DNA of 64,000 bases from Octopus vulgaris (Eukaryota). The notes below the pieces were generated by a model that saw only the letters and a list, made by a program, of their open reading frames with translations, was not told the origin of the DNA and did no database searches. Position numbers and translations under genes: made by a program. The stretch's first letter is position 1. Each line of letters opens with the position of its first letter. Shown here piece by piece: positions 7,140 through 62,915 of the stretch. Location of the stretch: positions 15,686,001 through 15,750,000 of the forward strand of contig OX597825.1 in the NCBI GenBank assembly GCA_951406725.2, read 5' to 3'.

Positions 7140-7448
7140 TCAAATATATACATATTTAATGAGTAAATATTCAAAAGTAAATTAATATCTGCGCTAATTA
7201 TAAATTGATAATTACAACAATAATATAGGTGGCTGCAGGCGTTAAATAGTATTAGATAGCTATAGATTTAAAATTCATATTTATCCTAAGGGCACACGAA
7301 GCACCTACCTGCTAGAAAGTGGAGTTAAAACCCTCAAATTAAACACCAATAACACTGAAAAATTCAACAGATAACAACACTAGAGCAAGACAAAATTTAG
7401 AACGCCAGCAGACTCCAGCGTGACGTGTTCAATTTTTCACTTGATAAC

Positions 7449-7503
7449 ATTTGCTGAAGAGAGTTGTGGGTTTTTCGCCCAAACTTGAAATTGCGATACA
7501 AGT
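7449..7503 (+). ncRNA. Type I hammerhead ribozyme, copy 1
   Basis: atttg-CTGAAGA-gagttgtggg...cccaaactt-GAAA-ttgcga-TA-caagt; predicted cleavage after 7498. Confidence 0.75.
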
Positions 7504-7933
7504 ATATCCAAAATTCCAAACTATATGGCATTAAGCTGTGATGGTATGTCAAAATTTATTTTTGCTCCTTTGCCCGACTATGTTGTTATCTGTTGAATTT
7601 TTCAGTGTCATTGGTGGTTAAGTTGAGTGTTTTAACTCCACTTTCTAGCAGATAGGTGCTCCGTGTTCCCTTATAATAAATATAAATTTTAATTGTATAG
7701 CTATCTAACGCTATTTAACGCCTGCAGCCTTCTAAGTTATTGTTGTTGTTATTATCAGTTTACATTTACTGCTGATAGTAATAACAATAACAATATCTCC
7801 ATAAATATTCGCTTTTGAATATTTACTCCTTATTATAAATATGTGTACACTGAAGTTGTTGTGAATTTGGCGCGAAACAACTCAGAACGCCAGCAGACTC
7901 CAACGTGAAAATCTAAATTTTTCCCTTGGTAAG

Positions 7934-7987
7934 ACTTGCTGAAGAGAGTTAAGGTTTTCCGCCCAAACTCGAAATCATGATACAAAT
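7934..7987 (+). ncRNA. Type I hammerhead ribozyme, copy 2
   Basis: acttg-CTGAAGA-GAGTT...AACTC-GAAA-TCATGA-TA-caaat; palindromic stem III ATCATGAT; predicted cleavage after 7982. Confidence 0.82.
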
Positions 7988-8661
7988 ATATCCAAAATAC
8001 CAACCTATATAGAATTAAGCTGTGATGATATGTCAAATCTTTTTTTTCTCGTTTGCCCGAGTACTGTTGTTATCGGTTGAAATTTTCAGTGTCGTTGGTG
8101 GTTGAGTCTTTTAACTCCACATTCTAGCAGATAGGCGATTCGTGTGCCTTTATCATAAATATATGCACATATACACACATGCATATATATATATATATCT
8201 TTTATTAAAATTTTAATACTTTTGATATATATTTAAAATAATATAAATTAATTAATCTTATGTATTGGCTTAAGTTTTTCATTGTTTGATTTGCCTAATA
8301 GTGGTTTTATCTCTAATTTAATATAACATATATATATATATATATATATATGACTGAATTCCTTCAGTTTCTAAGATACTTGTTGTACTCGTTACCGATT
8401 ATCCATTCTACACTCGTAACCATTTTATCATTCCAGAATAAAAGTATATTTAGGAAATTGATTGCAACTGAACGGGTCTGTCTCTTTAATATGGCCTAAA
8501 TTCATTTGTTACCTCTCGTTACCGTATTGGCTACAATTATTGACTGCATGTCGTTGATTATAATAGCTACGATCTCTTCCGCCAGCCATTCAGCTACGTC
8601 TCATATGTATGATATTTCTAAATATACACCTTCTGCACAGTCAGGTCTCATCAAAGCTGCA

Positions 8662-10551: not shown

Positions 10552-10651
10552 NNNNNNNNNNNNNNNNNNNNNNNNNNNNNNNNNNNNNNNNNNNNNNNNN
10601 NNNNNNNNNNNNNNNNNNNNNNNNNNNNNNNNNNNNNNNNNNNNNNNNNNN
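10552..10651. other. Assembly gap (100 N)
   Basis: Run of exactly 100 N, a placeholder length. Confidence 1.
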
Positions 10652-17739: not shown

Positions 17740-18157
17740 ACCTATTTCTTTACTACCCACAATGGGCTAAACACAGAGAGGACAAACAAAGACAGACAAA
17801 CAGATTAAGTCGATTATATCGACTCCAGTGCGTTACTGGTACTTATTTAATCGACCCCAAAAGGATGAAAGGCAAAGTCGACCTCGGCGGAATTTGAACT
17901 CAGAACGTAGCGGCAGACGAAATGCCTATTTCTTTACTACCCACAAGGGGCTAAACACAGAGAGGACAAACAAGGACAGACATAGGTATTAAGTCGATTA
18001 TATCGACTCCAGTGCGTTACTGGTTCTTATTTAATCGACCCCGAAAGAATGAAAGGCAAAGTCGACCTGGGTGGAATTTGAACTCAGAACGTAGCGGCAG
18101 ACGAAATACCGCTAAGCATTTCGCCCGGCGTGTTAACGATTCTGCCAGCTCGCCGCC
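17740..18157 (-). mobile_element. SINE family A dimer
   Basis: Head at 18157; two bodies joined at the recurrent junction (~17925). Confidence 0.92.
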
Positions 18158-44575: not shown

Positions 44576-44578
<3 letters not shown>

Positions 44579-44939
44579 AATTGAGTAGTTGAATGAATTA
44601 TCTTATTATAGAGAATTCGGTTAACCGATACCTGGGTAGCAAATTCACGTCAGAAAAACACGGTTGAAGCTACATGCCTAGGGCAGAGATCCCGTGCTAT
44701 CGTGTGGAAATTTGTGCGTTTCTTTAAATACAAATAAATGAAAGAATGGAGTTGAACGACGAATTAACAAAATTCCTTTATTTTCGACATATGTTTCGAA
44801 GGCTGCATATTCCTAATTTCAAAGGAATAAGCGGTGCATTATGTCGCCTTCTCATCAGGAAAAACAAGGAACTTATGTCAGCATCAAGATGCACAAAAAC
44901 TTTTAGATGACTGTCCACACGGAGCCCATAGCGATAATA
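44576..44939 (-). mobile_element. ~360-bp HHR-bearing island inserted in (TA)n
   Basis: Unique sequence between two TA tracts, containing a canonical HHR followed by AATAAA. Confidence 0.75.
44781..44863 (-). ncRNA. Canonical type I hammerhead ribozyme
   Basis: TTTTC-CTGATGA-GAAGGC...GCCTTC-GAAAC-ATAT-GTC-GAAAA; all core nucleotides present, 5-bp stem I, extended stem II, palindromic stem III ACATATGT, GUC site. Confidence 0.92.
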
Positions 44940-50286: not shown

Positions 50287-51029
50287 CTATAGTAAATACA
50301 TATATATATATATATATATATACATATATATTGTAAATACATATATATATGTCTATGTATGTATATATATATATATATATATATGGAGGCGTTACGTATA
50401 TGTGTATGTATACATGTATATACCTTCCCCAAACGCCCTCATGCCCTCTTCACACCTACAATATCATCACTTTGCATTTATGCATACATCTTACGCATCT
50501 ATTCTCTAACACACTACTCTCCTACACTTGTACATCTCTAAACATACCCACATGCACCCACCCAAGATGCACCCGTATCTCATTCTACTACACACATCTC
50601 CTCTATGTATATCGCTATACATGGATCCCCTCCTATACATGCACAAACCATCCCACCTCGTTCTTTCTTCTTAACTTTTCCCCATAGAACCATATACCCA
50701 CCCGGCCCCTTTCTGTGTTTCATTCTATCTCTTTCTTCCTACTAACTTTCTGTCTATTCTATTTTCCGTTCTTTCTTTTTTAACCTTCTCATGATGAAAG
50801 ACTAATGTCGGAAACGTCAAATACTTTTTCTTTTCGTTTAAAGTGTTAGACTAATAATACCTTTACTGAAACTTGTCCTCATTTTTCTTCATTTTTTTTG
50901 CTCATTACCAAACATATATACTTTATTATTGCTTGCCGACGGTTTTTCGAAATCAGTGACGGAAGTTACTAGGAAAACACTTAAGTATTTGCATACAGGT
51001 CTTCCTTTTCATCGTAAACCGGTGATTAC

Positions 51030-51074
51030 CGCCCGTTGACAAGAGGCAACTACCTCGAAACTGCGGTCCATGCG
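51030..51074 (+). ncRNA. Type I hammerhead, U3-A8 core variant
   Basis: cgcccg-TTGACAA-GAGG-caacta-CCTC-GAAAC-tgcg-GTC-catgcg; stem I has two mismatches. Confidence 0.72.
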
Positions 51075-51287
51075 TATCACTTAGGCTTACGAGAGAGGGA
51101 TGACCTCCCTTTGCAAATACCATAAGGGCACAGATAGTGTGCCTAAAGCCAGCTGGAGACGATGACCTCCTGGGGCTAAAAGCTACAGTAACACCCACCC
51201 TTTGTGGTTAGCCATATTGAGATGGCTATTATACTTTACGTTGTCGAGCGGTTACTGTTTACATCTCGTTCAGAGATTTATTATTGC

Positions 51288-51322
<35 letters not shown>

Positions 51323-51328
<6 letters not shown>

Positions 51329-51775
51329 TTTATCGCCTTTTGACTATGTTTACGTATTTCTCGATAAATTTTGACCGTTAGACCCTATACCAGAACCCCT
51401 CTGTTTGTCGGGTATGTTCTGCGTCTGCGCAATGATCTGAAAAGTTAGAGAAAGTAAATCAGTAGAGTCGCACATGTTTCTATTGATATGTACTTCTAGA
51501 ATAACAGGTTGCTTACTGAAGAATCTGACCTGAGAAGATAAATTATATTTAATGCTGAAAAAGACGAAACTGCAGTATAAGATGAACCGAGTTTGTAAAC
51601 GTTTTTAATTTTCATTTCACTGAATTTATCCAACTTTTGTGTATCTAGTACTCACTTCTTCTTTTAGAAGCCTTTTAATGTACTTATATATGAATAACAT
51701 ATAGCCTATGGCTAAAATGTCTTTTGTGCTAGATCACCGGCGATAATAATTTATTTTATCGCCTTTCGACTATGT

Positions 51776-51776
<1 letters not shown>
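51323..51776 (+). mobile_element. 426-bp HHR monomer with 28-bp terminal redundancy, in (TA)n
   Basis: atttattttatcgccttt(t/c)gactatgtt at 51323-51350 and 51749-51776; central HHR. Confidence 0.8.
51512..51581 (+). ncRNA. Type I hammerhead ribozyme
   Basis: CTTA-CTGAAGA-aTCT...AGAC-GAAAC-TGCA-GTA-TAAG; palindromic ACTGCAGT; A-C mismatch at 10.1/11.1. Confidence 0.8.
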
Positions 51777-51867
<91 letters not shown>

Positions 51868-52005
51868 AAAAAGTTGAGTTGTGGGGTATCGCACGAGTGG
51901 GATTATATAAGAAAAAAGGTTTGAAAATGCAATTTAAACGATGTTTATTTACTTAACCGGTTTCACTCTTTGGTAAAAGATTGTCAAAAGTTACATTTAA
52001 GGAAA

Positions 52006-52233
52006 CATTGAATAATATGGGTTCAAAAAAAGTTTTTTACATAATTGTCACATTGAATATTATGCATTCAAAAAAGTTTTTTACATAATTGTCACATTGG
52101 ATATTATGGGTTCAAAAAAGTTTTTTACATAATTGTCACATTGGATATTATGAATTCAAAAATGTTTTTTACATAATTGTCACATTGGATATTATGAATT
52201 CAAAAATGTTTTTTTATACATAATTGTCACATT
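52006..52233. repeat. 44-bp minisatellite, about 5 units (mirrored at ~53082-53308)
   Basis: acataattgtcac recurs at 52039, 52083, 52127, 52171 and 52218. Confidence 0.95.
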
Positions 52234-52650
52234 ATTTGGGAAAATTTGGCAGAAAAAGGATAAAACAAATATATTATTGGGAATTGGTTGCGTTAATTAT
52301 TGGTTGTCGCAAATTGTCACATTACATGTATATATATACAATCTTTGGTATATATATACAGCGTTTTGACAGCAAAAATTAAAATGGCTTTTTTGTACAT
52401 CTCAGAATATTTTAAGTATGTTTTTACTGACCTGTCAGTATTAGCAGAAAGGCTGAACTGAGAGAACAGAAGAAGTAGCCAATGTGGTGTATACTTCCCC
52501 TTTATGCATGAATGATTTTGGGGTTATCAGGAGGTTAGTATGCAGGTGTGAATAGATGTGTCCGTGCCTGCTGGTCAGACAGCATCTGTTTGTCACACAC
52601 ATATATATACACACAAACACACACACACACAACAACACACACACACACAC

Positions 52651-52703
<53 letters not shown>

Positions 52704-53322
52704 TGTGTATATATATGTGTGTGACAAACAGATGCTGTCTGACCAGCAGGCACGGACACATCTATTCACACCTGTATACTAACCTCCTGATAACCCCAAA
52801 ATCATTCATGCATAAAGGGGAAGTATACACCACATTGGCTACTTCTTCTGTTCTCTCAGTTCAGCCTTTCTGCTAATACTGACAGGTCAGTAAAAACATA
52901 CTTAAAATATTCTGAGATGTACAAAAAAGCCATTTTAATTTTTGCTGTCAAAACGCTGTATATATATACCAAAGATTGTATATATATACATGTAATGTGA
53001 CAATTTGCGACAACCAATAATTAACGCAACCAATTCCCAATAATATATTTGTTTTATCCTTTTCTGCCAAATTTTCCCAAATAATGTGACAATTATGTAT
53101 AAAAACATTTTTGAATTCATAATATCCAATGTGACAATTATGTAAAAAACATTTTTGAATTCATAATATCCAATGTGACAATTATGTAAAAAACTTTTTT
53201 TGAACCCATAATATCCAATGTGACAATTATGTAAAAAAACTTTTTGAATGCATAATATTCAATGTGACAATTATGTAAAAAACTTTTTTGAACCCATATT
53301 ATTCAATGTTTCCTTAAATGTA

Positions 53323-53363
53323 ACTTTTGACAATCTTTTACCAAAGAGTGAAACCGGTTAAGT
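53323..53363 (+). ncRNA. Hammerhead-like motif with U3-A8 core (mirror copy at 51951-51991, minus)
   Basis: ACTT-TTGACAA-TCTTT-tacc-AAAGA-gt-GAAA-CCGG-TT-AAGT-AAATAAA; two extra nucleotides before GAAA. Confidence 0.62.
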
Positions 53364-53402
53364 AAATAAACATCGTTTAAATTGCATTTTCAAACCTTTT
53401 TC

Positions 53403-53439
<37 letters not shown>

Positions 53440-53840: not shown

Positions 53841-53880
53841 TCTTAGCTAATTTCAGTCTTTATTGCACTCTCATCAGTAT
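53841..53880 (-). ncRNA. Degenerate hammerhead-like motif
   Basis: CTGATGA-gAGT-gcaataaag-ACT-GAAA-TTAGCTAA; NUH triplet and stem I lost. Confidence 0.4.
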
Positions 53881-54968: not shown

Positions 54969-55759
54969 AAGTGCGTAACTGGTACTTATTTAATCGACCC
55001 CGAATGGATGAAAGGCAAAGTCGACCTCGACGGAATTTGAACTCAGAACATAGCAGAGAGACGAAATACCGCTAAGCAATTCGTCCGGCGTACTAAAATT
55101 TCTGCCAGCTCGCCGCCTTTAGCGGAATTTTAACTCAGAACGTAACGGCAGACGAAATACCTATTTATTTACTACCCACAAGGGACTAAACACAGAGGGG
55201 ACAAACAAGGACAGACAAACGGATTACGTCGATTACATTGTCCCCAGTGCGTAACTGGTACTTAATTTATCGACCCCGAAAGGACGAAAGGCAAAGTCGA
55301 CCTCGGCGGAATTTGAACTCAGAACGCAACGACAGACTCAATACCTATTTCTTTATTACCCACAAGGGGCTAAACACAGAGGGGACAAACAAGGACAGAC
55401 ATAGGTATTAAGTCGATTACATCGACCCCAGTGCGTAACTGGTACTTAATTTATCGACCCCGAAAGGATGAAAGGCAAAGTCGACCTCGGCGGAATTTGA
55501 ACTCACAACGTAACGCAGACGAAATACCTATTTCTTTACTACCCACAAGGGGCTAAACACAGAGGGGACAAACAATGACAGACATAGGTATTAAGTCGAT
55601 TACATCGACCCCAGTGCGTAACTGGTACTTAATTTATCGACCCCGAAAGGATGAAAGGCAAAGTCGACCTCGGTGGAATTTGAACTCAGAACGTAGCGGC
55701 AGACGAAATACTGCTAAGCATTTTGCCCAGCGTGCTAACGTTTCTGCCAGCTCGCCGCC
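54969..55759 (-). mobile_element. SINE family A tandem array
   Basis: Head at 55759, then units of 183-184 bp (junctions ~55527, 55344, 55160); a further head-bearing partial copy at 54969-55118. Confidence 0.93.
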
Positions 55760-57166: not shown

Positions 57167-57213
57167 TGATGCTGAAGAGAGAGCAATAACACCTGAAATA
57201 TGCATGTACATCA
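57167..57213 (+). ncRNA. Type I hammerhead with weak stem II
   Basis: TGATG-CTGAAGA-gagagcaataacacct-GAAA-tATGCAT-GTA-CATCA; 5-bp stem I and palindromic stem III. Confidence 0.72.
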
Positions 57214-57534: not shown

Positions 57535-57731
57535 AGTTATTCCAAACATGAAAGCACAAAAAAACACAACAACGCGAGGACGTGGAACAAATATAGTATT
57601 ATTGGACGCTCAGGAAAAAAGAAGGGTTTAACGTTTCGAGCGGAGCTCTTCGTCGGAAACATAGGAGAAGGAGAGATCCAGAGAAGGGAAGAGGGAGGGA
57701 AAAAATTGCCAACGGTACACACGCGGTCACA
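57535..57731 (-). mobile_element. ~200-bp element with a 35-nt minimal HHR (57626-57660), in (TA)n
   Basis: GTTT-CCGACGA-A-GAGC-tcc-GCTC-GAAAC-GTT-AAAC; layout shared with the 19101, 22932 and ~31530 copies. Confidence 0.72.
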
Positions 57732-59889: not shown

Positions 59890-60301
59890 TATTTCTTTAT
59901 TGCCCACAAGGGGTTAAACATAGAGGGGTCAAACAAGGACAAAGGGATTAAGTCGATTACATCGACCCCAGTGAATAACTGGTACTTTATTTAACGACCC
60001 CGAAAGGTTGAAAGGCAAAGTCGACCTCGGCGAAATTTGCACTCAGAACGTAGCGGCAGACGAAATACCTATTCCTTTACTACCCACAAGGGGCTAAACA
60101 CAGAGAGGACAAACAAGGACAGATAAACGGATGAAGTCGATTATATCGACCCCAGTGCGTAACCGGTACTTATTTAATCGACCCCGAAAAGATGAAAGGC
60201 AAAGTCGACCTCGGCGGAATTTGAACTTAGAACGTAACGGCAGACGAAATACTGCTAAGCATTTCGCCCGGCGTGCTAACGTTTCTGCCAGCTAGCTCGC
60301 C
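59890..60301 (-). mobile_element. SINE family A dimer
   Basis: Junction at ~60068. Confidence 0.92.
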
Positions 60302-62136: not shown

Positions 62137-62915
62137 ACGAGCTGGTAGACACGTTAGCACGCCGGGCGAAATGCTTAGCGCTATTTCGTCTGCCGCTACG
62201 TTCTGAGTTCAAATTCCGCCGAGGTCGACTTTGCCTTTCATCCTTTCGGGGTCGATTAAATAAGTACCAGTTACGCACTGGAGTCGATATAATCGACTTC
62301 ATCCGTTTGTCAGTCCTTGTTTGTCCTCTCTGTGTTTAGCCCCTTGTGGGTAGTAAAGAAATAGGTACACACTTTTCTTATGAGCGGCGGGCTAGCAGAA
62401 TCGTTAGCACGCCCGGCGAAATGGTTAGCGATATTTCATCAGCAGTTAAGCTCTGAGTTCAAATTGCGCTGAGGTCGATTTGACTTTCATCCTTTAAAGC
62501 AGCGAGCTGTCAGAAACGTTAGCACGCCGGGCGAAATGCGTAGCCGTATTTCGTCTGCCGCTACGTTCTGAGCTCAAATTTCGCCGAGGTCGACTTTGCC
62601 TTTCGTCCTTTCGGGGTCGATTAAATAAGTACCAGTTACGCACTGGGGTCGATATAATCGACTTCATCCGTTTGTCTGTCCTTGTTTGTCCTCTCTGTGT
62701 TTAGCCCCTTGTGGGTAGTAAAGAAATAGGTATTTCGTCTGCCGCTACGTTCTGAGTTCAAATTCCGCCGAGGTCGACTTTGCCTTTCATTCTTTCGGGG
62801 TCGATTAAATAAGTACCAGTTACGCACTGGGGTCGATGTAATCGACTTAATCCGTGTTTCTGTCCTTGTTTGTCTCCTCTGTGTTTAGCCCCTTGTGTGT
62901 AGTAAAGAAATAGGT
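62137..62915 (+). mobile_element. SINE family A cluster (monomer, partial copy, dimer)
   Basis: 62137-62366, 62384-62495 and 62499-62915, the last with a 184-bp unit. Confidence 0.92.

Follow-up and report, generated by a model that had tools for sequence, protein, structure and literature searches.

Non-LTR retrozymes have been described as ORF-free repeats of 150-450 bp with a GC content below 50%, each unit bearing one type I hammerhead, which are joined head to tail or dispersed as monomers (PMC7229834; bioRxiv 10.64898/2026.07.22.740005). Circles derived from hammerhead repeats of 150-450 bp were reported in coral, mussel and axolotl by Cervera and de la Pena 2020 (PMC7229834), who hypothesised that retrozymes are mobilised by Penelope-like elements (PLEs), a model that has been restated in a 2020 review (PMC7761336). 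Retrozymes were related to pLTRs by Li 2026 (bioRxiv 10.64898/2026.07.22.740005), where dispersed monomers were also found and one of nine dimers was cleaved. Minimal hammerheads in pLTRs had been reported by Cervera 2014 (PMC4209133), together with the proposal that circles serve as templates for more-than-unit copying, and the formation of pLTRs has been summarized elsewhere (PMC8969392).

Among PLEs, Craig 2021 (PMC8557442) described partial tandems, inverted copies, non-autonomous derivatives arranged head to tail, and insertion into (TA)n, where target-site duplications are concealed. A tail of 30-40 bp, found at either end, was explained there by the resolving action of the endonuclease. 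A PLE tail of 31 bp was given by Arkhipova 2013 (PMC3846280). Frangieh 2024 (PMC11167929) mapped the tail to a segment downstream of the hammerhead that is bounded by two internal starts of reverse transcription, with AT-rich DNA being cut and uncut RNA being the main substrate in vitro. A squid genome contains 235 hammerhead matches (PMC6962438), and recently active Penelope-like families have been described for an octopus in a paper whose main text does not mention ribozymes (PMC13282606). Neither the family analyzed here nor a monomer-plus-tail signature was found in a search of the literature on retrozymes (cephalopods; terminal redundancy, tail), most subscription journals lying outside its scope; for cephalopods, the one paper retrieved deals with PLEs.

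The window, that is, the whole stretch of 64,000 nucleotides that was analyzed, is AT-rich, microsatellite-rich, animal-like DNA, with a scaffold gap of about 100 N at 10552-10651. It includes an island of 454 bases that is very probably a non-autonomous PLE-associated hammerhead repeat. As in non-LTR retrozymes, the island has an ORF-free unit of suitable size and composition (426 bp, 33.6% GC), one type I hammerhead per unit, a head-to-tail junction and a dispersed monomer, and its stem III, with one pair and a palindromic tetraloop, is like that of the axolotl HHR_Amex1. The match concerns motif, size and copy number, and the island differs from the described retrozymes by its long loop II, its mismatched stem II base and an overhang of 28 nt inside (TA)n.

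With endonuclease-bearing PLEs (PMC3846280, PMC8557442, PMC11167929) the island shares a hammerhead in a terminal repeat, a partial-tandem layout, a (TA)n target that hides any target-site duplication and a short extension downstream of the hammerhead. Unlike these elements, it lacks an RT/GIY-YIG ORF, its extension duplicates its own 5' end and measures 28 nt instead of 30-40, the distance from tail to cut is 172-199 nt and the whole unit comprises 426 bp. Insertion into an AT-rich or (TA)n target, used here to recognize non-autonomous PLE derivatives, was found for the island. Chlamys PLEs such as MRC1 are also non-autonomous, with pLTRs and head-to-tail copies, whereas they are green algal elements and most of them are without canonical hammerheads (Craig 2021, PMC8557442).

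The 426-bp unit and its relatives

The island consists of a 426-bp repeat unit (51323-51748, plus strand) followed by 28 nt that repeat the beginning of the unit. Self-comparison and pattern matching placed the first copy of this 28-mer at 51323-51350 and the second, a candidate PLE-type tail, at 51749-51776 (both on the plus strand), at a spacing of 426 and with in-register identity ending at both edges. The copies differ at one position, T51341 versus C51767, the latter within a CpG. Self-BLAST of the repeat gave an E value of 2e-9, a 27-nt pattern taken from the 28-mer was found only at these two places in the window with up to three mismatches and never in 100 shuffles, and the 28-nt repeat was the only one found when the island was searched for repeats. 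The flanks are a left (TA)n tract at approximately 51292-51322, which is the likely insertion target, and a right (TA)n tract at approximately 51778-51868. A single G (51777) separates the second 28-mer from the right tract. At the other side, the AT with which the island opens is assignable either to the left tract or to the element. The sequence-only reading of this DNA had described an island lying wholly between TA tracts, delimited by the same 28-mer with a period of 426 bp and carrying the hammerhead in its middle. Its coordinates, period and flanks were confirmed, as was the central hammerhead (51512-51581), which scores below the Rfam gathering threshold and has its predicted cut 255 nt into the island, counted from the 5' side, with 199 nt remaining up to the 3' end; "same" has to be corrected to 27 of 28 bases.

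The ORF scan detected no frame of 100 aa or more in the unit, the longest stop-to-stop frame having 84 aa on the minus strand, and no RT or GIY-YIG ORF was recognized there or among the flank frames, the latter being checked by eye only. The window contains no second copy of the 426-bp unit, and the material examined, the window included, yielded neither a parent PLE of the island family nor a remnant of its ORF or a tandem array. Exact-pattern scans for the unit yielded no loci in metagenome contigs, prokaryote genomes or viral contigs. Several other candidates were discarded: matches to snoRNA, miRNA and RAGATH-1 in the island were rejected as chance or TA-driven, a Helitron identity was rejected by eye from its end motifs, and microhomology at the 5' junction was not distinctive, as the unit includes three 8-mers that resemble TA more closely. 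A promoter scan of the island was uninformative, the models being bacterial.

Part of the island was present in 20 of the 24 listed sequencing runs (10 studies, 4 organism labels), the best of which contained 53% of its words. Contigs from four of the 24 listed runs (3 studies, 3 organism labels) were compared at 80% likeness with the island only, flanks excluded. The numbers of matching contigs were 149, 268, 54 and 146, and in all four runs these contigs covered the 29 bins of the island, including those of the 28-mer. Since the 54-268 contigs per run span a range of identity to the island from less than 90% to more than 99%, the unit is a multi-copy family with close and diverged members, sequencing depth not being convertible to copy number.

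A contig of 224 nt from one run (X3) joins 51748 to 51323 and continues to 51465 (143 nt), the short side having 61 nt. The end of the unit is thus joined to its start, and the unit closes into a loop without any ORF. This head-to-tail junction was observed in one contig of one of the four runs, most of the listed pieces being 70-115 nt long and barely spanning the repeat, and none of the pieces listed spans two hammerheads. In this contig, which comes from another sample, the 28-mer is embedded in element sequence to its left and right, so it is evidently part of the element and not a target-site duplication. Continuation into unlike sequence amounted to 1-2% of the matched sequence in the two deepest runs and to 13% and 22% in the others. 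The 24 loose ends listed, out of 121, all read as element variants, and no internal junction to (TA)n was seen among them, in a ranking where single-copy ends stand low. The variant-free stretch at the junction (0 of 39 listed sites in 96 nt, naive P 6e-5) was not relied on, as it is subject to edge effects, double placement and one unlisted row.

The hammerhead motif and its neighbours

The type I hammerhead motif (51512-51581, plus strand) was recovered by a structure-aware scan, the Rfam model and folding, with its core at 51516-51522, GAAA at 51566-51569 and a predicted cut after 51577. All the core nucleotides of a type I hammerhead are present; stem III has one pair and the palindromic tetraloop, stem I has 4 bp and loop II is long. 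The score with Rfam RF00163 was 20.7 bits, compared with a gathering threshold of 34 (E 0.018 in 441 nt), and no match was obtained at the gathering threshold in the whole window. The base of stem II shows an A.C mismatch at 10.1-11.1 in the island copy, and G10.1-C11.1 has been described as highly conserved in hammerheads (PMC4209133). In the unconstrained fold, loop II is predicted to pair with the cut site and to sequester it. The weak stem II and this alternative fold incline the interpretation towards uncut RNA.

Loose ends in another run (X4) point to relatives in which position 10.1 is the canonical G and the free position 7 is a T, so some copies of the family may cleave better than the island copy. 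With its lone hammerhead, the island copy would be a dead end from which the release of a monomer would be impossible. Folding of the unit was compared with that of shuffles, giving a z of -2.39 as a linear molecule and of -2.1 as a circle (-86.0 kcal/mol), with 1 of 60 shuffles as low as the circle. The hammerhead core and stems (35 nt) contained one of the 39 listed variant positions when 3.0 were expected, which is not significant (P 0.17). An 8-bp hairpin predicted at the junction (51739-51763, plus strand), with the start of the 28-mer in its AT-rich loop, was dropped as evidence: G51742A, which accounts for 55-91% of depth across the four runs, breaks one of its pairs, with no compensating change listed.

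The structure-aware scan, whose pattern was widened and whose thresholds were set after an initial motif search, found eight hammerhead-like motifs in the window, compared with 0-2 in 30 shuffles. These motifs belong to six separate insertions, and in all of them (TA)5 is met no farther than 223 nt downstream of the cut, at distances of 200, 223, 200, 44/91, 94 and 210 nt; for comparison, (TA)5 lies within 250 nt of 21% of 1622 background positions. In four hammerhead families the distance from the cut to (TA)n is 200-223 nt, and this shared spacing suggests a set geometry. When five other stretches were compared with themselves, three had no internal repeat. The 361-bp island at 44576-44936 (minus strand), located between perfect TA tracts, has a hammerhead with a long branched loop II inside and no terminal repeat, which indicates that a middle position between TA tracts is not a sign of permutation.

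To the right, the island adjoins a 1.54-kb palindrome formed by another hammerhead family (51869-53409), with arms 98.4% identical and 35 extra nt at the outer end of the left arm, as in a one-sided PLE-type tail. Its centre is a CA/TG microsatellite, and in each arm there are five tandem repeats of 44 bp and a hammerhead-like motif of the U3-A8 type. The palindrome resembles an inverted insertion of PLE type that is young and has captured flanking DNA, although it may be an assembly artefact. To the left, the region 50760-51287 carries a degraded hammerhead-like motif of the U3-A8 type at 51036, from which the left TA tract of the island is 223 nt away. Three hammerhead families thus lie side by side, separated by two TA tracts. 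The U3-A8 variant present in these two neighbours was already noted in Cervera 2014 (PMC4209133).

Other repeats were also observed in the window. The stretch 7140-8165 bears two hammerhead motifs and consists of an inverted copy and a partial tandem of 485 bp (83% identity); the inverted copy starts near a motif that resembles the 28-mer of the island. This likeness (7553-7585, in another hammerhead family than that of the island) was not equalled in any of 500 shuffles and is kept as a lead only, as the sister copy is unmatched and the window-wide E value is 0.024. A fragment of about 190 bp at 57541-57731 (minus strand), between TA-rich tracts, bears a minimal hammerhead variant with C at position 4, and the short degenerate hammerhead-like stretches at 57170-57210 (plus strand) and 53845-53880 (minus strand) are related to each other (81% over 32 nt). 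An abundant SINE-like family, whose members contain 2-3.2 copies of a 184-bp unit in internal tandem, is found at 17741-18107, 55122-55711, 59890-60252 and 62546-62915, and we take these 184-bp repeats to be reminiscent of octopus SINEs.

Template and ends of the island

The explanation that we prefer, with a probability of about 0.45, is that the island is a dispersed copy of a non-autonomous PLE derivative of the non-LTR retrozyme type, written by PLE enzymes from uncut tandem RNA, with the 28 nt as the tail. A head-to-tail template is evidently required for the island because of the 28-nt overlap and the contig that joins the end of the unit to its start. In the proposed mechanism, a tandem master locus elsewhere would be transcribed, a PLE protein acting in trans would nick (TA)n, and reverse transcription would start about 200 nt downstream of the hammerhead, pass through one unit and then through the unit junction, and the copy would end or be resolved at a second site located 28 nt earlier in the unit. 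The ends would be set by PLE enzymes, since the overlap is near the tail range and downstream of the hammerhead and the geometry of the neighbours is similar. That the overhang would be a PLE tail is suggested by its length, just under the published 30-40, and by its position; the limits of the 28-mer are simply those of the overlap, and a chance 5' truncation would give the same picture.

An uncut tandem transcript, a ligated circle and a template jump between cut monomers all give the same DNA, and as the ligation site (51577/51578) is seamless, no sequence at the island locus separates these templates. The uncut tandem transcript is slightly more likely than the ligated circle, given that the hammerhead is weak and that uncut RNA was the main substrate of the PLE in vitro; against this stands the stem III layout, matching that of the axolotl hammerhead whose repeats yield circles (PMC7229834). 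It is possible, although we lean against it, that the same element and the same enzymes used a hammerhead-cut, ligated circle of 426 nt, copied from a set start and rolled 28 nt past one turn. Closure of the loop without an ORF is consistent with such a circle, as are the palindromic stem III, found also in dimer-acting hammerheads, and a circular fold somewhat better than that of shuffles; moreover, circles of non-LTR retrozymes accumulate in coral, mussel and axolotl (PMC7229834), and more-than-unit cDNA from circles is a published model (PMC7229834, PMC4209133). However, a tandem transcript yields the same DNA, the island copy has the A.C mismatch at the stem II base, eight of nine frog retrozyme dimers were uncleaved in vitro (bioRxiv 10.64898/2026.07.22.740005) and the insertion of an anole PLE did not need cleavage (PMC11167929). 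Identical repeats would also be expected from one circle, and one base differs, though CpG decay could account for it. The sequence-only reading had favoured a circle copied slightly more than once over a truncated tandem. The need for a head-to-tail template has held, but not the preference for a circle, because a mid-element hammerhead between TA tracts is usual for PLE-type fragments in the window and a terminal extension of about 30 nt is a documented PLE tail. Nor do the relatives keep the constant period of about 426 bp that it had named as possible support for a circle, as they include an 11-nt deletion, an inferred deletion of about 18 nt and insertions of 1-4 nt, mostly in loop II.

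The strong form of that reading, in which a circle is copied from random entry points into circularly permuted insertions, is quite unlikely. Terminal redundancy and loop closure agree with it, but PLE reverse transcription starts at defined sites (PMC11167929), four hammerhead families of the window show the same 200-223 nt between cut and (TA)n, and the insertion at 44576-44936 has a central hammerhead without redundancy; the lack of internal (TA)n junctions among the loose ends listed also points against it, weakly. It is unlikely as well that the insertion was once a longer tandem, of n units plus 28 nt, which shrank to one unit by unequal recombination or was collapsed in the assembly. 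Repeats of this kind are known in tandems of up to hundreds of units (bioRxiv 10.64898/2026.07.22.740005), and the one-base difference between the 28-mers would fit, whereas the island locus gives no direct sign of such a history and other near-identical repeats of the window, the 184-bp arrays and the 98.4% palindrome, were resolved. Very unlikely, and largely refuted, is the reading of the island as an autonomous PLE end that was truncated at 5' and locally duplicated, or of the 28 bp as a host target-site duplication, even though other islands of the window resemble plain truncated PLE ends. The flanks are pure (TA)n, and the bins of the 28-mer are covered in the four runs. The sequence-only reading would have been refuted, in its own terms, if the 28-mer were host sequence or if all copies extended into a PLE ORF; neither is the case, as the 28-mer is flanked by element sequence to its left and right in the contig found elsewhere, and at least the island copy and that contig copy do not enter such an ORF.

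Significance of the family

As a single copy, the island is an ordinary repeat whose value is that of a test case. A wider interpretation, which we consider doubtful, is that it represents a young, high-copy retrozyme family whose monomers are one-turn-plus-tail prints of a circle copied by PLE enzymes, with ends set 28 nt apart. Circle-to-genome copying is already a published hypothesis (2014, 2020: PMC4209133, PMC7229834), and PLE reinsertion of animal retrozyme circles is still hypothetical. If the wider interpretation were true, the copies would document across the whole genome how circles are written into it, a step that has been proposed and not demonstrated in the cited papers, and the PLE tail would be tied to retrozyme mobilisation. 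Near-identical copies with a visible overhang would allow the positions of the ends and their mismatches to be compared, which could tell an origin from circles from an origin from tandem transcripts, and the same family could show whether the PLE tail marks copies.
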